The notes under the pieces are model-generated. The model did no database searches. It was not told the origin of the DNA and saw only the letters and a list, made by a program, of their open reading frames with translations. Positions 7,580 to 52,831 of a DNA stretch of 64,000 nucleotides are shown piece by piece (position 1 is the stretch's first letter; each line of letters opens with the position of its first letter). A program made the translations under genes and the position numbers. The stretch is from an uncultured Spirochaetota bacterium (lineage in GTDB: Bacteria > Spirochaetota > B62-G9 > CAZFGQ01), in contig CAZFGQ010000004.1 in the NCBI GenBank assembly GCA_964518675.1, positions 3,631-67,630 on the forward strand, in the 5' to 3' direction.

Positions 7580-9475
7580 TTGAAATTTAACTGGTTGTAT
7601 ATTATTTTATCTTTTATGAAAAAACAATCACTGCATACTTTTCTGCTGATTATTATCAGCCTTTTTGTACTTACCTCATGTGCAACCCTATCCAGTAAAG
7701 ATATAAAAAATATCCAGAAAGTGGATAAAAAAATAGAGGAGGATTTTGAGAGCAGTATCGAAAACCAGGATTTTTTTGATGCATGTAAGAACTTTATCGA
7801 GTATACAAAAAATTTTAAGGATGAAAAAAGATTCGATATGTTTAATAAGGTAAATCTTCTCTATCTCAAAAAACGCGAGGAGCTCGAAAAAAGTCAGAAT
7901 TACCTCGAAGCCCTTTCTTATACATATACCATGATAACTCTAACAAATCTTATCGATGGAAAAGAGGAATTAAAAAAGTATGAAACTTACCTTAAAAATA
8001 AAATAGAAGAATTAATGAGAAGCTATGATGGCTCAGCTGGAGATTTGAGAAAAGGTTCGTTCTATTTGTTTCTCTCTCTTTTTGAACCTGATAATCCATC
8101 CATTTATAAGAATCTTGTTAAAATATTTTTAAAGAGGGGAAATCCATTTATTGCTGATAAATATTTCAGAATTTATCTGGAAAAGTTAAAGGATTGTGAG
8201 CCTGAAAATGCTGAAGAGATTGAGAGTATCGAAAAGGATATAGGTAAACTTAAAAATGAGATAGAGAGTGATAAAGAGCTTCTTCAGAATGCCATTGATA
8301 AGGTTGTAGAAAGCAGTGTGAAGATTATTGTGGACCTGGGGATAAAATCCAGTGGAGGTTTTGGATATCCGGAGAGTGTGATTGGAACTGGTGTTGTCAT
8401 TGATCCTGAAGGGTATATCATAACCAATTACCATGTGATAGAACCTGTGGTTGATCCAGAATATGAAGGGTATGCCAGGGTTTATATTACCCCGGGTGAG
8501 GACGAAAGTGTGAAACTTCTGGCAAAGGTGGTTGGGTATGACCGAGTTTATGATATAGCCCTTTTAAAAGTAGAAAAGAAAATGGTTTCAAATATAAAAT
8601 TAGGGGATTCTGATACGTTAAGAAGGGGGCAGAAAGTATATGCAATTGGAAATCCTGTAGGTTTAACCAATACAGTTACATCGGGTATTATAAGCAGTAT
8701 TGATAGACCTTTTATACAGATAGGGAGTGTGATCCAAATCGATGTACCAATTAATCCTGGAAACAGCGGCGGTGCATTGATAGATGAAAAAGGATACGTA
8801 GTGGGAATTAATTTTGCCGGTTTACCAAACTATAAGGGGTTAAACTTTGCCCTTCCAATAAACCTGATATATTCTGTGATTTTTAAATTGTACGAAGAGG
8901 GTGAGGTTGAGAGAAGCTGGATTGGATGCACGGTCTCAAAATCTTTGGAGAAGCTGAGGGTCGATTATATTATGCCTGAATCTCCTGCTTCAATTTCAGG
9001 AATTATGCCAGGAGACTATATACTCGAAGTTGCAGGAAGGGATGTTTCTGAGATTTTTGATGCGCAGAGGATTGTTTCCCTCATGCCAAGTCCAATTGCT
9101 GTGTCTGTATTAATAGAGAGAAACGGGGAGGAAATTTGTAAAAGTATTCTTCTGGATAAAAGGCCGGAAATTCCATCAGCATACATCTACCAGCATGATG
9201 CTGAAGAGAATATTATAACCCCCATTTTCGGCATCAAGGTTAGAAGGTCTGAAGGATTGGGGAAAAAAACATATATAGTAGAAGGTGTTATTCCAGGGTC
9301 GCCTGCTCAGGAAGCTGGAATATCTGAGGGTGATGAGCTTAAATTAAGAAAGGTTGAATACCTTTCATCTCAGGGTGTATTTATACTTAATATGGAAATA
9401 AAATCCAAAAGGTACGGATACCTTGATAAAAATCTTGTCTTATACGCGGATGAAATAATGAATAATTTTTTATAG
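7580..9475 (+). CDS. HtrA/DegP-family serine protease lipoprotein with an N-terminal ~270-aa helical domain and two PDZ domains
   Basis: Lipoprotein signal (MKKQSLHTFLLIIISLFVLTSC, likely true start at 7616). The trypsin-like core has H (ITNYHV), D and S (GNSGGAL) catalytic residues. Two PDZ-like segments are present (GIMPGDYILEV; GVIPGSPAQEAGISEGDEL). The N-terminal coiled-coil/TPR-like region matched nothing I recognise. Confidence 0.8.
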   Translation: MKFNWLYIILSFMKKQSLHTFLLIIISLFVLTSCATLSSKDIKNIQKVDKKIEEDFESSIENQDFFDACKNFIEYTKNFKDEKRFDMFNKVNLLYLKKREELEKSQNYLEALSYTYTMITLTNLIDGKEELKKYETYLKNKIEELMRSYDGSAGDLRKGSFYLFLSLFEPDNPSIYKNLVKIFLKRGNPFIADKYFRIYLEKLKDCEPENAEEIESIEKDIGKLKNEIESDKELLQNAIDKVVESSVKIIVDLGIKSSGGFGYPESVIGTGVVIDPEGYIITNYHVIEPVVDPEYEGYARVYITPGEDESVKLLAKVVGYDRVYDIALLKVEKKMVSNIKLGDSDTLRRGQKVYAIGNPVGLTNTVTSGIISSIDRPFIQIGSVIQIDVPINPGNSGGALIDEKGYVVGINFAGLPNYKGLNFALPINLIYSVIFKLYEEGEVERSWIGCTVSKSLEKLRVDYIMPESPASISGIMPGDYILEVAGRDVSEIFDAQRIVSLMPSPIAVSVLIERNGEEICKSILLDKRPEIPSAYIYQHDAEENIITPIFGIKVRRSEGLGKKTYIVEGVIPGSPAQEAGISEGDELKLRKVEYLSSQGVFILNMEIKSKRYGYLDKNLVLYADEIMNNFL

Positions 9476-41125: not shown

Positions 41126-42751
41126 GTGCTTGAAAAAGAATATCCAAGACTGGTACGGAAAGGACTCGAGGAGGGACTTAGATTCTGGGGGCTTGATGTT
41201 GATACCGATAAGGATACCCTTATATCGTTCATCAGTAATATAAATAACATACTAAAAGGTATATCAAAGCTGGAGGAGGGAGAAAATAGGGTACTAACAT
41301 TCCTTTTAATGAAGAATGGAAAGGCAGAGAAAGATGATTTGAGAAGCATTATCCAGAGTGAAAAAGAGCTTGAGAAGGCTATCACCGGGCTTGAGAAAAA
41401 GTTTTTTATTTATGTCAGGAAAGATAGAAGCACTCTTACCGACAGGCATGATAAACTATACGTTTACCCTGTTATACTTTCGAAACTTACAGAGATTCCC
41501 GTTATTGAAGAAGATAAATTCGGACCTTTTCTGGACAAATATTATGAGCCCCTGTATAAATCATGTAATGTTCCCCGGGCTGTTATTGAAAGCCTGAGAT
41601 ATGGAGGGATCATTTTTGGAGGTGATGTTATTGCAGGGTCCAGTGACTTGAAAAAAACTCCTGACATTTCCGGGTTTTCAACCTATCTCTTGTACTTGCG
41701 CGGTTGTTTTTATCCATTTTACCTTCCGCCAATAACAGAACTGGAATCAGAGCAGGATATCAGAGAGGGAAGCTTCCAAAGAGGTTTCATATTTTCTGAT
41801 TATATAATCAAAGTAATATTGATATGTGATATTTTTCATCACTTCCCGAAAATTAGAAAAGCCGGGATAAAGAAAAGGATGGGGTCTCTGGGATTTAGCA
41901 TTTCTGATGGTGAATATGCTAGTATTCTGGATGACCTGAATATGTCTGGCGTTATTGATGTTTCAGAGAGAAGGGTTAATGTCAGTACGATGTTTCTTTA
42001 TGGAAACTATAGTGAGAAAATAAGGTACTTTGAATCAATACTTGGTGAAGACGAGAGAAACGTTATTGAAGAAGTCAGAAAGAGATCACCTTTAAGGGTT
42101 GATATTCTTACGTCGATTCTTGTTCGAAATTTAAGATTAAAGGAAAGGCGTTTTTCACTAACTGATGAGATTGCCGCTAAGATATACAAAAATTATTCAG
42201 ACAAACTTGAGAGGATTATTACTCTTGGTTTTATCGAACGGGATTTCAGCAGAACTTTTCTCAGAGCTTCTGAGTTGGAGTGCAGGATTCCGGAGAAAAA
42301 ATTTTTACAGATAAATGCAGACGGGGAAATTTTTGTTTATACGGAACTTATGAACGGATATGTATACTACTTACTATGTGGATTCGCCCGTCTTATATCT
42401 GTAGAGAAGATTCTAAAATTTAAACTTGATAAGGATTCGGTTATCAGAGGAGTAGTTTTATTTGCGTCAGCTGATGAGTTTATAGATATGATTAAAAATT
42501 GTTCAATTGGGAAACCAGAACCTTATGTTGTAGAAACTATTAAGGCATGGGCATGTGAAGGGTCGAAGATTAAAATTGGTCAAAGGTATGTTCTAAGAAT
42601 CGATGAGAGATTAAAACTGAAAATTATGGGGAGTGACAAACTCAGGGGAATGGTTGAACTTGTTTCTGGTGATTACATAGTTTTTAAGGAAGATACCGAT
42701 GTGGAACGATTAAAGGGTTACCTGCGTGATGAAAACATCTTTATCGATTGA
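41126..42751 (+). CDS. Hypothetical cytoplasmic protein, 541 aa, no recognisable domain
   Basis: GTG start immediately after the stop of the preceding ORF. Long uninterrupted ORF with no Walker or other motif I can name. Confidence 0.5.
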   Translation: MLEKEYPRLVRKGLEEGLRFWGLDVDTDKDTLISFISNINNILKGISKLEEGENRVLTFLLMKNGKAEKDDLRSIIQSEKELEKAITGLEKKFFIYVRKDRSTLTDRHDKLYVYPVILSKLTEIPVIEEDKFGPFLDKYYEPLYKSCNVPRAVIESLRYGGIIFGGDVIAGSSDLKKTPDISGFSTYLLYLRGCFYPFYLPPITELESEQDIREGSFQRGFIFSDYIIKVILICDIFHHFPKIRKAGIKKRMGSLGFSISDGEYASILDDLNMSGVIDVSERRVNVSTMFLYGNYSEKIRYFESILGEDERNVIEEVRKRSPLRVDILTSILVRNLRLKERRFSLTDEIAAKIYKNYSDKLERIITLGFIERDFSRTFLRASELECRIPEKKFLQINADGEIFVYTELMNGYVYYLLCGFARLISVEKILKFKLDKDSVIRGVVLFASADEFIDMIKNCSIGKPEPYVVETIKAWACEGSKIKIGQRYVLRIDERLKLKIMGSDKLRGMVELVSGDYIVFKEDTDVERLKGYLRDENIFID

Positions 42752-44561: not shown

Positions 44562-45485
44562 CTAAAGTGCATTTAAATCGGATCTCGTATAATAGTGTTT
44601 GAGCAATATGCCTTCCCCAGTAATATACTTCTTTTTTTCCCCATTGATCAAAATACTGACGGTTTTGACTTCATCAAATTCGAAGCACGTGAGAAGTATC
44701 TGTTTAAGTTGAATCTCGATTGCTTTTCTTCCAAGATAGTTATTCTCAAAATTTTCATTAAAATTAAGTGTGAGATGATTATTTTTTAGGGAAGCTGAGA
44801 TTAATTTAGTCCCCTGAGGAATAAATGTTTTAAGCCCTCTTTTTCTTTCTGCTTCTCCAGGACCTTTCAATAGTAGCTGTATGGTTCTTGTGATTGGTGA
44901 ATCTATATATTTGACAGTTTTTTTAATACCGGCAAGAGTCATCTCTCCCGTGGTAGGGTCGACTGTGACATAGTAGATGGTGGAGGTTCGAGTGTTAACT
45001 GCTTTGGATTCTGCTTTTGTTTTTCTCGTGGTTGTTTTTTTACTTTCTACCTTTTTGGCAGTGTCTAACCTTTCTGGTGTTTTTTGTGTTTCCAAACGCC
45101 TTTCTGAACTGGCTGAGGCTGTTTCTTTTTCCTCATTGGTCTTTTCTTCTTTTTTTATCTCCTCTTTTTGTTCAATTTTCTTTTCTTCGATTATTTGTTT
45201 CTCAGGAATTACTTTCTCAGATTTTTCTTCTTTTGTTTCCGGTTTGATTAACGTAATTTCTTCTTTTTTATCTTTTTCCTGAACTTCGTCCTCACTCTTT
45301 GTTTCTTCTTTGACGATGACTTTCAGCTTTTGCTCACCTTTTATAACTGAGACTAATGAATTGATTGTCTCTTTAAACGAACCTTTACCTCTATAGAGGA
45401 ATATTACTGCTATTATAAGCAGTATAAATATCCAGAAGAGACAACCTGTTCTTCTTATTTTTCTGGATTTGCCTCGCCTTGCCAT
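44562..45485 (-). CDS. GerMN-domain protein with N-terminal TM anchor and a K/E-rich low-complexity linker
   Basis: N-terminal TM (CLFWIFILLIIAVIFL). A 150-aa K/E/T-rich linker. The C-terminal region (IDSPITRTIQLLLKGPGEAERKRGLKTFIPQGTKLISASLKNNHLTLNFNENFE...VSILINGE) matches GerMN (sporulation/germination) domains. Confidence 0.65.
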   Translation of the reverse strand: MARRGKSRKIRRTGCLFWIFILLIIAVIFLYRGKGSFKETINSLVSVIKGEQKLKVIVKEETKSEDEVQEKDKKEEITLIKPETKEEKSEKVIPEKQIIEEKKIEQKEEIKKEEKTNEEKETASASSERRLETQKTPERLDTAKKVESKKTTTRKTKAESKAVNTRTSTIYYVTVDPTTGEMTLAGIKKTVKYIDSPITRTIQLLLKGPGEAERKRGLKTFIPQGTKLISASLKNNHLTLNFNENFENNYLGRKAIEIQLKQILLTCFEFDEVKTVSILINGEKKKYITGEGILLKHYYTRSDLNAL

Positions 45486-45565
45486 CTAAAGCAATATAGG
45501 TTTATCAATATCATTTGTCAAGCCAATACGTTTTAGGTTAAAATATTGTATAGCAGGAGTTTTGG

Positions 45566-45991
45566 ATGAAGCGGATAAAGTTATTGGTAGTTTTGATTCA
45601 GGTATTGTTCCTCCTTTCATGTTCAAAGGAGCCGGAAAAACTTATATTAAGTATAAATGGTCGTTACCTTGAAGTGGAGGTCGCACGTACTGAGAAGGAG
45701 AGAGAGAAGGGCCTGATGAATCGTAAGTCTCTTGGCTGGAATGAAGGGATGCTCTTTATTTTTGATGATGATCAATACCTCTCTTTCTGGATGAAAAATA
45801 CTAGCATTCCGCTTTCGATCGCTTTTCTGGATAAAAATGGTATTGTGACCGATATATACAGTATGAAGCCTTTTTCGCTAGAACCTGTTGTATCTTCGCG
45901 TAAATGTAGATATGCTATTGAGGTCAATGATGGTTTTTTTGAAGAATGTGGACTAAAAATTGGAGACAGAATTGAGATTAACATCCAGTAG
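45566..45991 (+). CDS. DUF192-family lipoprotein
   Basis: Lipobox (LFLLSC). DUF192 pattern: EVARTEKEREKGLMNRKSLGWNEGMLFIFDDDQYLSFWMKNTSIPLSIAFLDKNGIV...YAIEVNDG. Confidence 0.75.
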   Translation: MKRIKLLVVLIQVLFLLSCSKEPEKLILSINGRYLEVEVARTEKEREKGLMNRKSLGWNEGMLFIFDDDQYLSFWMKNTSIPLSIAFLDKNGIVTDIYSMKPFSLEPVVSSRKCRYAIEVNDGFFEECGLKIGDRIEINIQ

Positions 45992-47030
45992 GTACTTTGG
46001 GATATTAATTAAATTATTTTTCTTTCTCTTTATACTTTACAGTCCCGCCAGGATGCTACTGGCGGAGGATAAAATACTGATTTACTATTTTAAGAATATC
46101 ACTGGGGATGATAGATACAACGATCTTGAATATAAAATCTCTGTCTGTCTGTATAGAGAGCTCAGGGCAAGGATTGGAAAAAAAGGGGTTTATCTCATTA
46201 GACCCGATACTTTTGAAAAATATTCAATTGGCAGGGATGAATATTTTAATGAGAATTTCCTCATAAACCTGTTTAGCAGGGAGAAAATTGATAAGGTTTT
46301 ATTCGGTTATTTTTTTCTACTTGACGGTAGGATTGAAATGAGAGGTAGGCTCCTCTCTGTAGATAGTGGGGTTATAATTGATATAACGGAGGCGCAGAAA
46401 GAACTGTACGAGGCTATTAGAAAAGTTGAGGGGATCGTGAAGGAGTTACAGGGTAGATGTGAACTTGATAAAAAAACAAAATATTTTTCGCCTGGTAAGA
46501 AAGCCAGAAAAGTGGCCATAAAAGAGGAAAATGCGAAAACAGGTTTGCTGGTTTTGTCAGGTGTTATTTTCCCAGTTTTTGAGTGGGGGAAATATTATGA
46601 TCCGGGAATTTTTGGGAGTTTTAATTTTTACTACACGCCGAAACCAATGACATTCCCACTTGGTTTTGGGACCCAATTTTTCTACTACTATTTGGAAAAA
46701 TCGGAGGATTTGTACCTTGGCTCAAAATTAAATGGTTTGGGCGTGCAACCAATGTTGACATACATCAAGGAAAGAAGTGGCTTTTTCAGTGGTTATGGTT
46801 TTCTTTTTGGTGTTGGCGGAGGGCTGAGTATGTTATTTGTTAACGAAGCAGATTATCTCTCAATTGATCCCTCAGTTAGTGCAAGCTTTTTTCTAATAAT
46901 TTCACCTTTTAAGGGACTTAAGATGACATTAAATGCGGGTGCCTATTCAGTAATATATAAATCTTATCCTTTTACAACCTATACTTTATCTATTGGAGTT
47001 AAATCAGGAACTTTGAAGGTAAAGAAATAA
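45960..47030 (+). CDS. Hypothetical secreted / outer-membrane-like protein: N-terminal FxNxTG (CsgG/FlgO/TolB-N-like) domain plus an aromatic-rich beta-strand C-terminal half
   Basis: Signal-like N-terminus. YYFKNITGDDRYNDLEYKISVCLYRELRA resembles the FxNxTG motif of CsgG-like and TolB-N-like lipoproteins. The C-terminal half alternates aromatic residues (FGTQFFYYYLEK, GFFSGYGFLFGVGGG). Overlaps DUF192 by 32 nt. Confidence 0.55.
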   Translation: METELRLTSSRYFGILIKLFFFLFILYSPARMLLAEDKILIYYFKNITGDDRYNDLEYKISVCLYRELRARIGKKGVYLIRPDTFEKYSIGRDEYFNENFLINLFSREKIDKVLFGYFFLLDGRIEMRGRLLSVDSGVIIDITEAQKELYEAIRKVEGIVKELQGRCELDKKTKYFSPGKKARKVAIKEENAKTGLLVLSGVIFPVFEWGKYYDPGIFGSFNFYYTPKPMTFPLGFGTQFFYYYLEKSEDLYLGSKLNGLGVQPMLTYIKERSGFFSGYGFLFGVGGGLSMLFVNEADYLSIDPSVSASFFLIISPFKGLKMTLNAGAYSVIYKSYPFTTYTLSIGVKSGTLKVKK

Positions 47031-47032
47031 CC

Positions 47033-48340
47033 ATGTTTAATAATGTTAAAAAGTTTATAATCCTTTTTTTCCTGCTGTTTCCTGGTATCTGTTCGGCTGA
47101 TTTTCATGAAGTTTTTATCAACACAGAGCCAGTTGGTGCTGAGGTTAAACTGGATTATCAACCTCTTGGTAAAACCCCTGTTCGGGTTGTTCTTGAGCAG
47201 AAAAAGAAATATCTGATGGAGATAGAAGCAGAGGGATATCATCAGTTTAGCACAGAGAAGTTCCTTGGTGAAAAAAGAAGAGAGGTTCTCTTTTTTACTC
47301 TGAAACCAGAGAAGGTAAATATCGTAATCGAGCACAAAAATGAGGAATTATACATAAATGGCGTGACAGCAGGAAAAACACCTGTAATGATTACAGGTCT
47401 TCCCGATGGGTTTTATAGGATTGAATCGAATGAAAGTGGGATTCATCTATGGGTTGGAGATGGATGGGAAACAAGAAGAGAATCGCTTGTTGATTTGTTT
47501 TTCAGTTCTTCAATTCTTGGATTGTCTGTGACAGGATTTGTACTCAACGATGACAGAGACTATGAAAAAGAAATATTTTTTAAATCCTCGGCGCTGATAT
47601 TTGGAATAATCTCAGGCTATAATTTTATGAAGTTCCTCAAGTCACATTTTGAGTATCGATCACAGTTTAATGATTTCTATAATGTGGATGTAAAACCCTA
47701 TAATGTCAACGATGCGAAGAGTAATTTTGTAAAAGGGATGGAATTACTGGGCAACGGAAATTATAAAGAAGCAATACCCTATTTTAATTTAATATCTGAA
47801 CTCTATCCTGATTCTGAATACCTGCCAATTTCTATTTATGAAATAGGGTATTGTTACTACATGCTGGATGATCCTAAAGGAATTGAATATCTCAAGAGGT
47901 ATGTTGAAGAGTATCCACAGCCAGATCTTTTTCAATTAGCAGTAATGATGCTTCTGGAGTACCAGTTAAAGAGAAATCTTGTCTACGATGCTCTCGTAAC
48001 ATATCAAAAAGTTCGGCCGGTTATAATTCACGATTCGGATGGAGAAATAATTGTTTCTTACTATCGTATCCTGACGGATATATACAAACGAACGGGTAAG
48101 GTATATAACATTATAATCAGAGATATTCTGAGAGAGATAAATTATTTTTTGACCAATTATAAGGATGTACCGAAGTATCCGGATATACTCCTATTAAAGG
48201 GTAAACTTCATTATAAGTATCTTGATAAAGAGCTTGGTGAAAAAATCTTTAAGAGGATTCTTGATGAATATACTCACAGAGATGATTTAAAAAAGGAGAT
48301 CAGGGCTATCAGTGAATATGGAAAAGGTACTTTGCTTTGA
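47033..48340 (+). CDS. PEGA-domain protein with a C-terminal TPR-like region
   Basis: Signal peptide. Two PEGA-like repeats (INTEPVGAEVKLDYQPLGKTPV; LYINGVTAGKTPVMITGLPDGFYRIE). A TM segment, then a TPR-like helical C-terminus (NYKEAIPYFNLISELYPDSEY...). Confidence 0.65.
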   Translation: MFNNVKKFIILFFLLFPGICSADFHEVFINTEPVGAEVKLDYQPLGKTPVRVVLEQKKKYLMEIEAEGYHQFSTEKFLGEKRREVLFFTLKPEKVNIVIEHKNEELYINGVTAGKTPVMITGLPDGFYRIESNESGIHLWVGDGWETRRESLVDLFFSSSILGLSVTGFVLNDDRDYEKEIFFKSSALIFGIISGYNFMKFLKSHFEYRSQFNDFYNVDVKPYNVNDAKSNFVKGMELLGNGNYKEAIPYFNLISELYPDSEYLPISIYEIGYCYYMLDDPKGIEYLKRYVEEYPQPDLFQLAVMMLLEYQLKRNLVYDALVTYQKVRPVIIHDSDGEIIVSYYRILTDIYKRTGKVYNIIIRDILREINYFLTNYKDVPKYPDILLLKGKLHYKYLDKELGEKIFKRILDEYTHRDDLKKEIRAISEYGKGTLL

Positions 48341-50555
48341 ACTGAGGGGTTTTATCCTTGGGGTGGACTCCTCACAGGTAGAAAAGGTACTTGTTAATAA
48401 AAATCCCAGCAGGGAGAGCTTTACACTCGCTACAGGGGTTGAAATAAAGCCATTATGGGAATATATCCCACTTCCTGAAAGAGCAGAAAAAATATCAGAA
48501 AACATAATTTTCATTAAGGATCAGAAGGACTCTTACGGGTTTACTGTGGATAGGGTAAGGGGATATGTGAATGTAAGAGCATCTGAAAGGCAACACCAGA
48601 AAATGGAGCAGGGCCCCATAAGATACTATATAAAAATTGATGGGGATCTGATCCCGGTTCTGGATCTTGCTTTTATTACCAATAATAAAGGTTCTGTTGG
48701 AGAGGAACATATAAAAGAAATTGTTGAAATGAGCAGAGGCATTTCTCAGGATGGAGGGGAGGTTGAAGAGGAGCCTTCTCTTACTGTAAGCAAAGAGGAG
48801 GTGTTCAGAAGCATTGAAGAGGAGATAAAGAGAAGCAAGAAGGATTTTTCTGAAACGGTAATCAAAAGTGAAAGAAAAGGTTTTCTTTTTCCCGTTTTGA
48901 TAAATGCGGGAATAGTTCTTTTGTTTGGAGCTGGTCTATTATACTTCATTATGACAAACAGAGAAAGCCTATCAATGGCCTATATGGGGGGTGTTGTTAC
49001 TGGAGTTGAGGAAGAGGTTATCAAGGAGATTAAGAGGAGATCTGAGGAAGAGTTAAGTCAGCAGAGGAAAAAGCTTGAGGAAGCAAAAAGGAGACTTGAA
49101 GCTCTTCGAAGGGAAAAAGAGTTTTTCGAAAAGAATCAGGATAAAATTTTAGCAGAGAAGGAGAAAAAACTCAGGGAAGAGTATAACAGGAAACTTGAGG
49201 AAATAAGAAAGAGACTTGAAGCGAGTGGTGTTGCAAATGTTGAGGAGGCATTCCAGGCAGAGAAACAGAAGCTTTACCAGGAATACCTTGCTTCTCTTCA
49301 GGCGACCAGGAGCGAGATTGAAAAGGTAAAAAGGCAGTATGAAGAGGCACTGAAACAGAAAGAGGCCGAGATAAAAAAGGAGGTGAATATTTACTCCCGG
49401 AGATTGGCAGAGATGGAAGCCCAACTTGAGTCAGAACAGAGTAAATTAAGGAAGGTTGAAGAACAGTTCAAGAGTGTTGCAGCAAAGCAAAAAGAATACG
49501 AAGCTTTTAGGAACCAGCTAAATCTGATTTATGATAGAGCTCTTAAATATCTGGAAAAAGGAAATACTTCTAGAGGACTTGAAACACTGCGAAATGCAAT
49601 AAGCATCCTCAATGAGGCAGAAAAAAGAGGGCTCACAGATCCCTTTGGCCTCAGTGTTGAAAAGGAACTTATAAACAGGATGATATATATTACTGAAAGA
49701 GAAAGGGCCAAGGTTGATGTAAACGAACTTGCCCGCAAAACATTGCTTTCAGCGAATACACTGGAAGCTGCCGGTAAAGAGAGGGAGGCTCTTTATAAAT
49801 ATTTTACCGTTTACACAATAGCAAAAGACCAGAATTTGCGTGAGAGAGCTTATAAAAAGGCCCAGGATATAATGAATAGAATATATGCTGAAATCTCTTC
49901 AGAAGAAAAAGCCAGATTGGAGTCGGAAGCAAGCGACCTGATCAAAAAGGCCGGAAAGATGATCGATAGTGGAGATTATGATAGGGCTGTAGAGCTCCTG
50001 TATGCTTCTCTATCGACACTAACTGACCCTGCTATTGCAAAGGATGTCTTGAATAAAATAGCCTATATAAAAGAAATGAAGCTGGAGGAAGAGCAACAGA
50101 GAGCAGTGCAGGAACGGGAGAAAAATGCCAGTGTTTTGATGGCAAAGGCAGATGAGCTTTATAAAAAGGGATTTTTTAGCGAAGCAATTGATTACTACAG
50201 AGAGATTGCCACAAACTTCAGCGGTACGAGGAGTGCCGATATTGCTATTGATAGACTTATAAGTATTAGCGAAAAAATGAAGGAATATAAGGTAGCATCA
50301 AGGGGAAGAATAGAGGTTACAGGTAAGGATACCTCGGTGGTTATTCAAAAGCTTGGTACCTCGCAGGTTATAATTGGTCTCGGAGGAAATGATGGTGTGA
50401 AATCCGGAGACACACTTCAGGTCTACCGTAAGATCGGGTCCGAGTTTCAATTTGTATGTACTTTAAGGGTTTTTGAGGTGTATCCAACCAGCTCCAAAGC
50501 GTCTGTAACCTATTTTGAGCGGAGCGTTAAGGTAGGGGATATAGTTACTTATTAG
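48312..50555 (+). CDS. CheW-like-domain protein with a single TM helix, ~450 aa of coiled coil/TPR-like repeats, and a small C-terminal beta domain
   Basis: The N-terminal 130 aa match the CheW fold (LCFELRGFILGVDSSQVEKVL...IIFIKDQKDSYGFTVDRVRGYVNV...IPVLDLAFI). TM helix (GFLFPVLINAGIVLLFGAGLLYFI). Long EK-rich heptad region. The C-terminus is GDTLQVYRKIGSEFQFVCTLRVFEVYPTSSKASVTYFERSVKVGDIV. Overlaps the PEGA gene by 29 nt. Confidence 0.7.
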   Translation: MNMEKVLCFELRGFILGVDSSQVEKVLVNKNPSRESFTLATGVEIKPLWEYIPLPERAEKISENIIFIKDQKDSYGFTVDRVRGYVNVRASERQHQKMEQGPIRYYIKIDGDLIPVLDLAFITNNKGSVGEEHIKEIVEMSRGISQDGGEVEEEPSLTVSKEEVFRSIEEEIKRSKKDFSETVIKSERKGFLFPVLINAGIVLLFGAGLLYFIMTNRESLSMAYMGGVVTGVEEEVIKEIKRRSEEELSQQRKKLEEAKRRLEALRREKEFFEKNQDKILAEKEKKLREEYNRKLEEIRKRLEASGVANVEEAFQAEKQKLYQEYLASLQATRSEIEKVKRQYEEALKQKEAEIKKEVNIYSRRLAEMEAQLESEQSKLRKVEEQFKSVAAKQKEYEAFRNQLNLIYDRALKYLEKGNTSRGLETLRNAISILNEAEKRGLTDPFGLSVEKELINRMIYITERERAKVDVNELARKTLLSANTLEAAGKEREALYKYFTVYTIAKDQNLRERAYKKAQDIMNRIYAEISSEEKARLESEASDLIKKAGKMIDSGDYDRAVELLYASLSTLTDPAIAKDVLNKIAYIKEMKLEEEQQRAVQEREKNASVLMAKADELYKKGFFSEAIDYYREIATNFSGTRSADIAIDRLISISEKMKEYKVASRGRIEVTGKDTSVVIQKLGTSQVIIGLGGNDGVKSGDTLQVYRKIGSEFQFVCTLRVFEVYPTSSKASVTYFERSVKVGDIVTY

Positions 50556-50563
50556 TTTGAAAT

Positions 50564-51160
50564 TTATGGAAGGAATGGAATTGGAAATCTTGTCCTTATA
50601 AAGTAGAAGGTGCTGCTGTCCAGCCTTCCGGAATATAGAATACCCACATCACATTTAATCCTGAAATAGCTATTTTTAAGGATTTTTCTTCTTACTTCCA
50701 GACCTGTTAAAAGATAAAAGTGTAAGGGTGAAAGAACATTCTCAAAATCCAGATAGGTTAATGAGAATCCTATTCCTGAAAATGGAATTATTTTAAGTTT
50801 CTTTGTTATTTTAAGGGGATAACCAACAGCTGCTGAAAAAGGAACTGTTATAAGAATGCTGCTGGAGTTCTCGATAAGGTTTGTTGCCATTCCTAACTCA
50901 TAGATTGAAATACATTTTGAAGAATCGAAAAAAAACTTTATCATGGGGCTTATCATACTTATGTAGCCACCCAGGTAAACTCCCTGTTCTGGCTTTTTGA
51001 ACTCTGATAAGTTTTTAAGATCGGATTTGATAAAGAGGTAATTGAAGGTACCAAAGGATATGTCGACCTGAGGTTTGTAGTCAACCATCCCTGCCAGGAT
51101 TGATCCAGGAATGAGGGCAACAGTGAGCAAAAGCAGAAGTTTATATTTTACCGGTTTCAT
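50564..51160 (-). CDS. Hypothetical secreted protein (possible small beta-barrel OMP)
   Basis: 198 aa with an N-terminal signal (LLLLLTVALIPGSILAG) and alternating hydrophobic strands. Lies 16 nt downstream of the cyclase gene on the same strand. Confidence 0.5.
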   Translation of the reverse strand: MKPVKYKLLLLLTVALIPGSILAGMVDYKPQVDISFGTFNYLFIKSDLKNLSEFKKPEQGVYLGGYISMISPMIKFFFDSSKCISIYELGMATNLIENSSSILITVPFSAAVGYPLKITKKLKIIPFSGIGFSLTYLDFENVLSPLHFYLLTGLEVRRKILKNSYFRIKCDVGILYSGRLDSSTFYFIRTRFPIPFLP

Positions 51161-51175
51161 TACAATTTCACTTTA

Positions 51176-52831
51176 CTATTTTATGGCTGCTGTGTACACT
51201 CCATCCCAGTCTTCTGGTGGAGGATTCTTTATAAGTTCGGTACATCTATCTATGTACATAGATGTGGGTATATCCTCTGGGAGCATATCTCTGCACTCCC
51301 TGAATGCTTCCAGTGCTTCTTTAAATTTTCTATTTCTGTAGAGTTCGATTGCACTGTTAAATATGTTAAAAGCTTTTTCCATTTCTCCTGAGTCTGGAAT
51401 GAATGGCTGATAGATTTTTACTGGTTTCAACTTGCCCATAACTCGAACTGAGTCGAGTTCTCTTACCTTTATTTGCCCATTCATGGCTCTGTGTGTATGT
51501 TCGCTGATTATTATTGGAACCCTGTACAGTTTTGTGAGCCCTTCCAGCCTCGAGGCAAGGTTCACAGTATCACCAACACAGGTATAATCTAGTTTTTGTG
51601 TTGAACCAATATTACCTACAACAACCTCTCCAGTATTGATTCCAATTCCTATTCTGAATGGAGGTCTCCCGAGTTTGGTCTGCCTTTTATTGAAAGATTT
51701 TAATGACTGAAGCATTTCAAGGCCGGTAATAGTAGCCTGAAAGGGATCATCGTCGTGTTTTGCTGGGGCACCAAATATGGCCATTATGGCATCACCTATG
51801 AACTTATCTATTGTGCCTTTGTGTTGAATAATGATTCCGACCATAAGGTTGAAGTATGTGTTCAGTGAGGTTACAAGCTCCTCAGCAGAAAGGCTCTCAG
51901 AAATTGTTGTGAAGCTTCTGATGTCGGAAAACAGAATAGTGACAATCTGTTTTTTCCCAATCAACAGGTCTTTACCGCTGGATTTCATTACCTCGTCAAT
52001 TACCTCTGCCGGGACATATTTCTGGAATATCTGTCTGATCCTCTCTTCATTATTTTTAGCCAGTACTGATTTATAAGCATATTCCTTGATTTTATTATAC
52101 GCAATCTCAAGATCTTCAATCATATAGTTAAACCAGGTTGCCAGGTATCCGATTTCATCATCGTATTCAACATTTACTCTTTTTGAAAGGTCGTTTGTTG
52201 TGATGATTTCTTTCATAGTAGATACTACATTGCCAATTGGGTCTGTTATCTTTTTAATCGAGAAGAGGATGAATATTACAGCAATTACCAGGGTGATACC
52301 CATAATGAAGGCCACCTGCTTTTTAATGCTATTTGCATTTTCATAGAATACTTCTTCTTTTTCACTCAGCAGGAGATACCAGTCCCATGGCTCAAAATAC
52401 ATGAAGTACCCTATTCGTGAGCCATCGATAAAAGTAAAGTTAACCAGGCCGTTTATTTTACCCTTTATATTTTTAAAAAAACTATTATCTGATATATTCG
52501 TAATTTCGAGTTTTGGGAATATGATTTCACCGGAAGAATTAAAGGCCATGAAGTATCCGGTTTCTGATAAGCCTATGGTTTTTGCATATTCTTCAGCTGA
52601 CTTTTTTGCGAGCTCGCGATAATTTTCTTCTTCGGCAAGACCGGTTTCAACGAGGATATCTTCCTGCCTACGGCAGTATTTGTACATCTCTGCAACTTTA
52701 TAGCTCAAAAACTCTCTTGTAACCTTGGTTATGCCCTGCCTTGCTGAGAAGTAGGAAGTAAAGCCAACGAGGATTAAGGGTAAAATGAGAATGGGAAGGA
52801 TTACTACAAGGACTTTTGTTCTTATTTTCAT
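51176..52831 (-). CDS. Sensor adenylate/guanylate cyclase (periplasmic sensor, HAMP, class III cyclase)
   Basis: Two TM helices flank a ~150-aa periplasmic region. HAMP-like linker. Cyclase core TILFSDIRSFTTISESL...IDKFIGDAIMAIFGAP...GINTGEVVVGNIG...VGDTVNLASRLE. C-terminal helical (TPR-like) tail. Confidence 0.88.
   Translation of the reverse strand: MKIRTKVLVVILPILILPLILVGFTSYFSARQGITKVTREFLSYKVAEMYKYCRRQEDILVETGLAEEENYRELAKKSAEEYAKTIGLSETGYFMAFNSSGEIIFPKLEITNISDNSFFKNIKGKINGLVNFTFIDGSRIGYFMYFEPWDWYLLLSEKEEVFYENANSIKKQVAFIMGITLVIAVIFILFSIKKITDPIGNVVSTMKEIITTNDLSKRVNVEYDDEIGYLATWFNYMIEDLEIAYNKIKEYAYKSVLAKNNEERIRQIFQKYVPAEVIDEVMKSSGKDLLIGKKQIVTILFSDIRSFTTISESLSAEELVTSLNTYFNLMVGIIIQHKGTIDKFIGDAIMAIFGAPAKHDDDPFQATITGLEMLQSLKSFNKRQTKLGRPPFRIGIGINTGEVVVGNIGSTQKLDYTCVGDTVNLASRLEGLTKLYRVPIIISEHTHRAMNGQIKVRELDSVRVMGKLKPVKIYQPFIPDSGEMEKAFNIFNSAIELYRNRKFKEALEAFRECRDMLPEDIPTSMYIDRCTELIKNPPPEDWDGVYTAAIK

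Follow-up and report, generated by a model that had tools for sequence, protein, structure and literature searches.

Why should a domain resembling the chemotaxis adaptor CheW sit at one end of a membrane protein that is encoded among genes for cell-envelope proteins? The question is raised by four plus-strand open reading frames (ORFs), here called g1 to g4, at positions 45566–50555 of a 64,000-nucleotide stretch (the window) of contig CAZFGQ010000004.1 from an uncultured Spirochaetota bacterium. An earlier interpretation made from the nucleotide letters, referred to below as the sequence-only reading, had described the four ORFs, and all of them are present at these positions (Table 1). To our knowledge, CheW-like domains have been described almost exclusively in soluble proteins of chemotaxis, namely CheW, CheA, CheV and ParP. 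We propose, with a probability of about 0.4, that g1–g4 constitute one operon for a lineage-specific scaffold that would span the cell envelope, with the CheW-fold domain of g4 docking a cytoplasmic partner.

The CheW-like domain of g4

The N-terminus of g4 does not contain a signal peptide. The AlphaFold2 model of the N-terminal domain, calculated from 33 sequences, has a predicted local distance difference test score (pLDDT) of 88.8 and a predicted template modelling score (pTM) of 0.84. A Foldseek search with this model returned 18 matches at E ≤ 1e-3, all of which are CheW or CheA-P5 domains with TM-scores of 0.57–0.69, and the next match had an E-value of 0.5. The family profile of the domain aligns with CheW of T. 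maritima over residues 4–124 (E = 2.7e-6), and the CheW profile PF01584 matches 12 of 20 g4 relatives at E ≤ 0.01, the best at 8.7e-6; one relative (P0026) also carries a precomputed PF01584 match. As modelled, the two-subdomain SH3-like β-barrel of the g4 N-terminal domain is a genuine CheW fold. The fusion of a CheW-like domain to a transmembrane helix, which the sequence-only reading had claimed, is thus confirmed as regards the fold, and the helix is present at residues 191–215. The CheW domain is the best-conserved region of g4, with a mean pairwise identity of 59% compared to 47% overall. An identification of g4 as CheW proper, a soluble single-domain adaptor encoded together with cheA or genes of methyl-accepting chemotaxis proteins (MCPs), was considered and rejected, because the protein has 747 residues, a transmembrane helix and no che gene among its annotated neighbours.

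The groove of T. maritima CheW that receives the receptor tip contains residues L14, V27, I30 and V33 (PMC5706961). An alignment of hidden Markov models places three of these positions (L14, I30 and V33) on the conserved g4 residues L7, V/I23 and V/I26, and the fourth is occupied by Ser or Pro. We speculate that the domain may dock a cytoplasmic partner whose surface resembles either the MCP tip or CheW/P5, and that the partner could be chemoreceptor arrays. Such docking might fix chemosensory complexes to a defined site of the envelope, by analogy with the CheW-like AIF domain of ParP, which tethers Vibrio arrays to the polar anchor ParC (PMC5706961). The N-terminal domain of g4 shares the two-subdomain fold of CheW and CheA-P5 and has profile similarity to T. 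maritima CheW, and ParP is a precedent for a CheW-like domain that serves as a tether on a non-signalling part (PMC5706961). In contrast to CheW, P5 and ParP, the g4 domain is fused to a transmembrane helix and a periplasmic region of about 530 residues. The most far-reaching extension of the proposal, which we consider improbable, is that an undescribed trans-envelope complex couples the chemosensory apparatus, via the membrane-tethered CheW fold, to a periplasmic and outer-membrane scaffold. Such coupling would fix arrays or a related lattice in thin, highly curved cells without a cytoplasmic anchor of the ParC/ParP type. The presence of a CheW fold at the cytoplasmic end of a membrane protein with a periplasmic scaffold would point to a direct structural link between the chemosensory system and the envelope, which bears on the positioning and stabilisation of arrays and motors in spirochaete cells of this shape.

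Envelope parts of the proteins and the systems they resemble

The polypeptide of g4 continues behind the CheW domain with an acidic linker, an amphipathic helix, the transmembrane helix flanked on its N-terminal side by Lys/Arg, a coiled coil, TPR-like repeats and a β-domain. Residues 216–400 consist of 52% E/K/R/Q and 2% Gly/Pro, and heptad-like a/d hydrophobicity extends over residues 244–410. A coiled coil of about 450 residues had been claimed, but the Pro/Gly-free heptad-like stretch comprises only about 165 residues (244–410) and is followed by the TPR-like repeats and the small β-domain. The profile of the TPR-like region matched designed helical repeats, BamD and CpoB in the PDB. An exhaustive g4 profile search gave 1034 matches at E ≤ 1e-3, only 17 of which reached E ≤ 1e-30. 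The full-length family amounts to about five representatives at 50% identity, and its full-length members have so far been obtained exclusively from metagenome-assembled genomes (MAGs) of uncultured bacteria. Three proteins, P0048, P0052 (Spirochaetes MAG) and P0055 (Exilispira sp.), have the whole g4 layout with N-terminal domains diverged past recognition. Most other matches, 650–1236 residues long, cover only residues ~150–655, which contain the amphipathic helix, transmembrane helix, coiled coil and TPR region. Among the core-family names looked up, all those with a phylum label are Spirochaetota, and a few read only 'MAG: [bacterium]'. Because many spirochaete relatives share only the helix–transmembrane–coil–TPR core, the CheW domain appears to be a lineage-specific addition; as judged from sequence comparison, the core is a spirochaete-wide type of periplasmic scaffold to which the CheW fold was added in this clade. 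The core, being common to many spirochaete proteins, would carry the basic scaffolding role. This Spirochaetota-wide family with varying N-terminal domains can now be searched for in cultivable spirochaetes. The N-termini of core-family members (P0039–P0183) are absent, Lar_N-like (P0040) or consist of 150–460 residues of no recognised family, and the members bear no functional names. Some members (P0045–P0047 and P0051) also have the TPR region and terminal barrel in common with g4.

The small β-domain at the C-terminus of g4 was missed by the sequence-only reading. The FlgT_C profile PF16538 matches seven of 20 relatives (best E = 1.5e-5), and its match in the window protein covers 23 residues and scores 22 bits (cut-off 27). 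The profile of the domain had only four matches at E < 10 in the PDB: M. xanthus TsaP (1.7e-3), Vibrio FlgT twice (0.17–0.18) and P. aeruginosa TsaP (1.1). These similarities support, less strongly than in the case of the CheW fold, a terminal domain of the FlgT-C/TsaP type. Both TsaP and FlgT surround machines of the outer membrane as periplasmic ring or spoke components; in TsaP, the spokes around the PilQ secretin are formed by the C-terminal domains, which are FlgT-C-like β-rolls (bioRxiv 10.1101/2020.05.29.123786). The module differs from the Vibrio H-ring of FlgT, FlgO and FlgP and from TsaP of type IV pili in that the two corresponding domains are on separate proteins and score below the family cut-offs, and in that it has neither a LysM domain nor flagellar or pilus genes nearby.

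Parts of this kind could also belong to the flagellar motor. The module might serve the periplasmic flagellar motor as an accessory scaffold that corresponds to the spirochaete collar or supplements it. The TPR, coiled-coil and FlgT-like parts would then be arranged around the motor or stator, and the CheW fold would contact a cytoplasmic motor or chemotaxis component. Known collar proteins are spirochaete-restricted TPR and coiled-coil scaffolds that are anchored in the inner membrane or periplasmic: FlcA has a cytoplasmic N-terminus, a transmembrane helix and a periplasmic TPR region, FlbB a transmembrane helix and a coiled coil, and FlcB and FlcE contain TPRs (PMC11750108, PMC8609358, bioRxiv 10.64898/2026.05.29.728556). 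The likeness of g4 to FlcA is one of described layout only, and part of the collar density has no assigned protein (PMC11750108). FlgT of the Vibrio H-ring contains domains similar to the C-terminal domain of g4 and the N-terminal domain of g2, and the core family of g4 looks specific to Spirochaetota. However, CheW, PEGA and DUF192 domains and an outer-membrane barrel are not reported for the collar in the three collar studies cited above, and such a barrel would be odd for a motor whose filament stays periplasmic. The sequence-only reading had listed FlaA, GerMN/amidase and adenylate cyclase genes as nearby and considered a motility or cell-pole role possible. All these genes are indeed downstream of or adjacent to the block, but FlaA is 10 kb away, behind xseAB, the radical-SAM gene, sugar-nucleotide genes and an amidase gene, and its proximity was rejected as evidence of motility. 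The analysis revealed no connection of the module with motility or the cell pole, and neither a che nor a flagellar gene is adjacent to it. We consider the assignment to the motor unlikely.

Both the tandem PEGA domains and the TPRs that had been claimed for g3 score above the Pfam cut-offs, the TPR part with TPR_6 (E = 1.5e-9, 38.3 bits against 26.3) and YfiO (E = 7e-7, 29.7 against 25). Its best NCBIfam matches, TIGR02795 tol_pal_ybgF (E = 2e-11, 44.5 bits against 90) and BamD (E = 5e-10), remain below the respective cut-offs. The hydropathy of g3 peaks at residues 152–170, and the motifs E[TS]LFSAGLFGLS..G and SSxIFGGLLGYNLLKLxK are conserved in the helix pair of 15 homologues. The pair may form a hairpin in the inner membrane, which would leave the PEGA and TPR parts both in the periplasm.

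The product of g2 belongs to an orphan family that is strongly divergent yet always sits between g1 and g3. Neither Pfam nor NCBIfam matches g2, and 17 family members searched against Pfam gave no match even at E ≤ 1. Word-index homologue searches, with g2 alone or with the alignment of 17 sequences, retrieved only 2–3 proteins. There is no sequence relative of g2 in the PDB, and no chain of the TolB-N, LpoB, PelC or CsgG type is among the PDB sequence matches at E ≤ 10. The YYFKNITGD motif noticed by the sequence-only reading is present and is the best-conserved stretch of the family, with the consensus VLIYYFKNITGD and invariant Y38 and F40; the mature protein begins at this stretch, VLIYYFKNITG[DE]. 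The comparison with lipoproteins of the CsgG/FlgO/TolB-N type did not hold as regards the lipid anchor, because homologues of g2 have type I signal peptides and no lipobox Cys before the YYFKN motif. The fold of the N-terminal domain in a low-confidence AlphaFold2 model, calculated from a four-sequence alignment, is of the LpoB/TolB-N/PelC/CsgG type, and a periplasmic domain of the LpoB/TolB-N/PelC type is supported, more weakly than the CheW fold of g4, by this model. The aromatic-rich, β-rich half ascribed to g2 was recovered: according to the alignment, the C-terminal 150 residues have an alternating hydrophobic pattern, with aromatic residues making up 11–21% and Gly about 12%. The last residue is F/Y in 10 of 17 homologues. 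AlphaFold2 produced only strands for this half (pLDDT < 35), and no Pfam outer-membrane protein family matched it in the 17 members. The C-terminal half is likely an eight-stranded outer-membrane barrel. The g2 proteins of the window and its two closest relatives (P0034 and P0035) end in a basic extension, ...GVKSGTLKVKK (46990–47030 in the window), with no terminal aromatic residue. This putative outer-membrane family with an LpoB/PelC-type domain is a second target for searches in cultivable spirochaetes.

The DUF192 profile matches g1 above its cut-off (PF02643, E = 7e-34, 116.3 bits against a cut-off of 27). The lipobox-like Cys is kept in most homologues. Its PDB relatives, 3pjy and 3m7a (E = 1e-16), are structural-genomics entries with no function assigned, and no function was found in the literature on DUF192. 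The signal peptides or transmembrane anchors that had been claimed for all four products correspond to N-terminal hydrophobic segments in g1–g3 and to the single internal transmembrane helix of g4, which supports their prediction as envelope proteins.

The combination of these parts recalls the Tol-Pal system with CpoB and LpoB of E. coli: an inner-membrane helical arm (g4), a YbgF-type TPR (g3) and an outer-membrane-tethered domain of the TolB-N/LpoB fold (g2). CpoB, LpoB and TolA are said to work together in E. coli. The module might then coordinate the outer membrane, peptidoglycan and inner membrane, with g4 TolA-like, g3 CpoB-like and g2 LpoB/TolB-N-like, which would agree with the tol_pal_ybgF and BamD matches of the g3 TPR region, the TolA-like layout of g4 and its weak TIGR02794 match (E = 2.5e-4), the divergent neighbour encoding a GerMN-domain membrane protein, and the amidase_3/GerMN pair nearby. 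However, the TolA match lies in a low-complexity E/K-rich region (tolA_full, 20 bits against 59), and the transmembrane helix of g4 contains no His, so that the SHLS motif of TolA is absent. Neither g1–g4 nor the neighbouring genes encode TolQ/TolR (of the MotA/ExbB type), a TolB β-propeller or a Pal/OmpA-type domain. Furthermore, g2 would be anchored by its putative barrel rather than by lipid, Tol systems have nothing that corresponds to the PEGA, DUF192, CheW and FlgT-C-like parts, and a Tol-like role would not account for the CheW fold. Canonical Tol-Pal was rejected as an identity of the module, because motor, propeller and Pal are missing from g1–g4 and their neighbours, and a looser Tol-like role is unlikely. 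The likeness to the PelBC exopolysaccharide exporter is one of parts only, since the operon has no glycosyltransferase or polymer-synthesis genes and the g2 domain and barrel are on one chain. The module fits no known system whose defining features were tested; it combines known envelope-scaffold parts in a new arrangement, in which the CheW fold tethered to the membrane stands out as unusual.

Gene junctions, conserved order and the case for the proposed scaffold

The junctions of 32, 2 and 29 nucleotides described by the sequence-only reading are seen in the sequence, the first with the g2 start TTG 45960 and the last with the g4 start GTG 48312. The start of g2 at TTG 45972 is preferred, because it is preceded by GGAG 7 nucleotides upstream and yields a normal signal peptide (MRLTSSRYFGILIK...); it shortens the overlap with g1 to 20 nucleotides. 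The stop codon of g1 (45989–45991) falls within g2 for either start. The overlap of g3 and g4 would be 23 nucleotides if g4 began at ATG 48318. The 80-bp intergenic region between g1 and the divergent GerMN gene contains a candidate promoter of the operon and, on the minus strand, a mirror sigma-70-like site with an 11/12 match. This divergent pair comprises the two best sigma-70-like sites of a 7-kb scan, in which the total number of sites was not above the shuffled expectation, no site within the g1–g4 block stood out, and terminator-like sites were at chance level.

Searches with g4 identified 33 full-length relatives of 744–753 residues with about 40% identity, and every source name given is Spirochaetota or Spirochaetes. 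A scan of species-representative genomes located 18 loci, all in Spirochaetota MAGs from sediments, springs and vents. The presence and order of the genes were judged by tblastn searches with the proteins encoded in the window. The order g1–g2–g3–g4 is kept in all 18 loci as far as the contigs extend, with identities of 54–70% (about 61%) for g1, 24–32% (about 29%) for g2, about 34% for g3 and about 41% for g4. In ORFs extracted from the loci, the stop of g3 and the start of g4 overlap by 4–11 nucleotides in 16 of 17 cases. The genes g1 and g2 overlap or are at most 45 nucleotides apart in most loci, and g2 and g3 are mostly separated by 2–50 nucleotides, with about 120 in L011 and 325 in L008. 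Insertions flank the block, with 2 kb between the GerMN gene and g1 in L004 and 4.6 kb between g4 and the downstream gene g5 in L012, but none was seen within g1–g4. Tight junctions, the conserved g3/g4 overlap, the absence of internal insertions and the position of the best sigma-70-like sites only upstream of g1 make the single operon that had been claimed likely, as far as can be judged from sequence.

Based on these observations, an arrangement of the proposed scaffold can be outlined. The bitopic inner-membrane protein g4, which has its CheW fold in the cytoplasm and a large arm in the periplasm, would act as the anchor. The g3 protein would sit in the inner membrane via its hydrophobic hairpin and may pair with g4, because the two genes are translationally coupled and conserved polar residues are located in or beside the hydrophobic helices of both proteins. 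The periplasmic arm of g4 may extend to the g2 domain, which would hang from the outer membrane, and g1 would be an accessory periplasmic subunit.

Several observations weigh against a scaffold of this kind. The PF01584 assignment holds at the level of the family, but the window protein itself falls just below the cut-off (20.9 bits against 23.5, E = 2.9e-4). Two loops of the g4 CheW domain are shortened, and there is no Arg at or near the position of the INLRG Arg (R62 of E. coli, R56 of T. maritima), which aligns with an invariant L-x-T-G (T41 G42). The linker between the CheW domain and the transmembrane helix comprises only about 65 residues. The baseplates of chemoreceptor arrays reportedly lie about 21–31 nm from the inner membrane; therefore, the linker would have to be stretched almost completely to bring the domain to a canonical baseplate position. 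The CheW fold lies outside a canonical che operon, as the sequence-only reading stated, and the annotated neighbours include no che gene, either in the window or in the loci. Alignment of the CheW-domain profile with the N-terminal domains of P0048 and P0052 by hhalign gave no match. The quality of the AlphaFold2 model of g2 is low (pLDDT 44), and the barrel is a prediction. The conserved order of g1–g4 was seen inside one clade only, where the whole 12-kb block, ApbE-(SBP)-GerMN, g1–g4 and g5-cyclase-xseBA-radical-SAM, is syntenic. The adjacency of g1–g4 is therefore only moderately informative about a shared function, and the co-conservation of the genes stands with this restriction. Finally, a metagenome scan seeded with a distant g4 group gave one well-covered locus (L020), with UvrB upstream of the g4-like gene and no g1, g2 or g3 nearby.

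The last two points are also what would be expected if the four envelope genes were functionally unrelated and together by inherited synteny, forming no complex, with the CheW fold a degenerate remnant. The syntenic block includes plainly unrelated genes (ApbE, cyclase and xseAB), the distant g4 homologue stands alone, and the g2/g3 gaps are widened in L011 and L008. However, the start–stop overlaps of g3 and g4 are conserved, insertions occur on either side of the block and not inside it, all four products are targeted to the envelope, and no other part of g4 is as well conserved as the CheW domain, unlike what a degenerating remnant would show. Inherited synteny without a complex is less likely in view of the conserved coupling of g3 and g4 and of the strong constraint on the CheW fold, and we judge it to be quite unlikely. 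The envelope-spanning scaffold with a docking CheW fold remains the interpretation that we favour.

Table 1 Features of the g1–g4 block (window coordinates)
Feature	Position	Strand	Description
Candidate operon promoter	45515–45544	+	Sigma-70-type TTGTCA-18-TAAAAT, 10/12 match; in g1/GerMN intergenic region; consensus match only
g1	45566–45991	+	141 residues; DUF192 (COG1430) periplasmic lipoprotein, lipobox LLSC
g2	45972–47030	+	352 residues from preferred TTG; orphan-family secreted protein; listed ORF begins 45960 (356 residues)
g2 N-terminal domain (residues 33–157)	46068–46442	+	Opens with conserved VLIYYFKNITGD strand-loop; predicted LpoB/TolB-N/PelC/CsgG-type α/β fold
g2 C-terminal half (residues ~195–345)	46554–47006	+	Probable outer-membrane β-barrel, ~8 strands
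g3	47033–48340	+	435 residues; signal peptide, 2 PEGA, hydrophobic hairpin, TPR domain
g3 tandem PEGA domains (residues 26–150)	47108–47482	+	PF08308, E 1.5e-16, two stretches, 60.5 bits against cut-off 20.8
g3 conserved hydrophobic helix pair (residues 152–203)	47486–47641	+	Putative inner-membrane hairpin
g3 TPR domain (residues 225–430)	47705–48322	+	YbgF/CpoB- and BamD-like
g4	48312–50555	+	747 residues; bitopic inner-membrane protein
g4 cytoplasmic CheW-fold domain (residues 1–125)	48312–48686	+	AlphaFold2 model, Foldseek and profile
g4 transmembrane helix (residues 191–215)	48882–48956	+	Hydropathy 2.32; invariant P194 and N198; preceded by conserved amphipathic helix (~161–185)
g4 periplasmic coiled-coil-like region (residues 244–410)	49041–49541	+	Conserved break SGVxNVD at 303–312
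g4 TPR-like helical repeats (residues 412–670, ~260 residues)	49545–50321	+	TPR_2, TPR_6, YfiO in 3–6 of 20 relatives
g4 C-terminal small β-domain (residues 671–747)	50322–50552	+	FlgT-C/TsaP-like

Neighbouring genes and minor observations

Upstream of the block lie rpoBC and ribosomal-protein operons. The gene divergent from g1 (44562–45485, minus strand) encodes a 307-residue protein with an N-terminal transmembrane helix, a long K/E-rich linker and a GerMN domain (E = 1.7e-19). It adjoins g1 in nearly all related loci and could be a fifth, co-regulated envelope component. Farther upstream, a 541-residue ORF (41126–42751) with only a weak Helicase_C_3 match (E = 1.5e-4) follows a 240-residue CbiQ-like membrane ORF, and the two are partly conserved 5′ of ApbE in several related loci.

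Downstream of the block, g5 (50564–51160, minus strand) is a 198-residue secreted β-rich ORF convergent with g4, the stops being 8 nucleotides apart. Its position is conserved in the clade, with identities of 26–37%, and its product resembles a small outer-membrane barrel; Pfam, NCBIfam and PADLOC gave no match to it. The gene was left outside the operon because it is convergent and located 16 nucleotides downstream of a gene for a Cache-HAMP adenylate cyclase (51176–52831, minus strand). A defence system was considered as a further identity of the locus and rejected, as PADLOC matched none of g1–g4, g5 and the GerMN gene. The cyclase gene is followed by xseBA, a radical-SAM/SPASM gene, sugar-nucleotide genes, an amidase_3/GerMN pair, FlaA and GroEL. 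The segment 56179–61767 contains a CTP_transf_3 cytidylyltransferase and a methyltransferase/Epimerase_2 fusion, then amidase_3, the second GerMN gene and FlaA, and could represent a sugar-nucleotide pathway near a flagellar sheath gene.

The GC skew is strongly positive (0.2–0.4) over window positions 8000–50000, which include rpoBC, the ribosomal-protein operons and g1–g4, and fits co-orientation with replication on the leading strand. Downstream of the g4-like gene, two distant loci carry a gene for a secreted 232-residue protein with two CBM48/AMPK1_CBM β-sandwich domains (L020, 8756–9454; L021, 2272–2970), which was not found in the window or in L001–L019. The tandem-PEGA g3, located 5′ of g4 in the window clade, and the two-CBM48 protein of the distant loci may be analogous partners built from tandem β-sandwiches.

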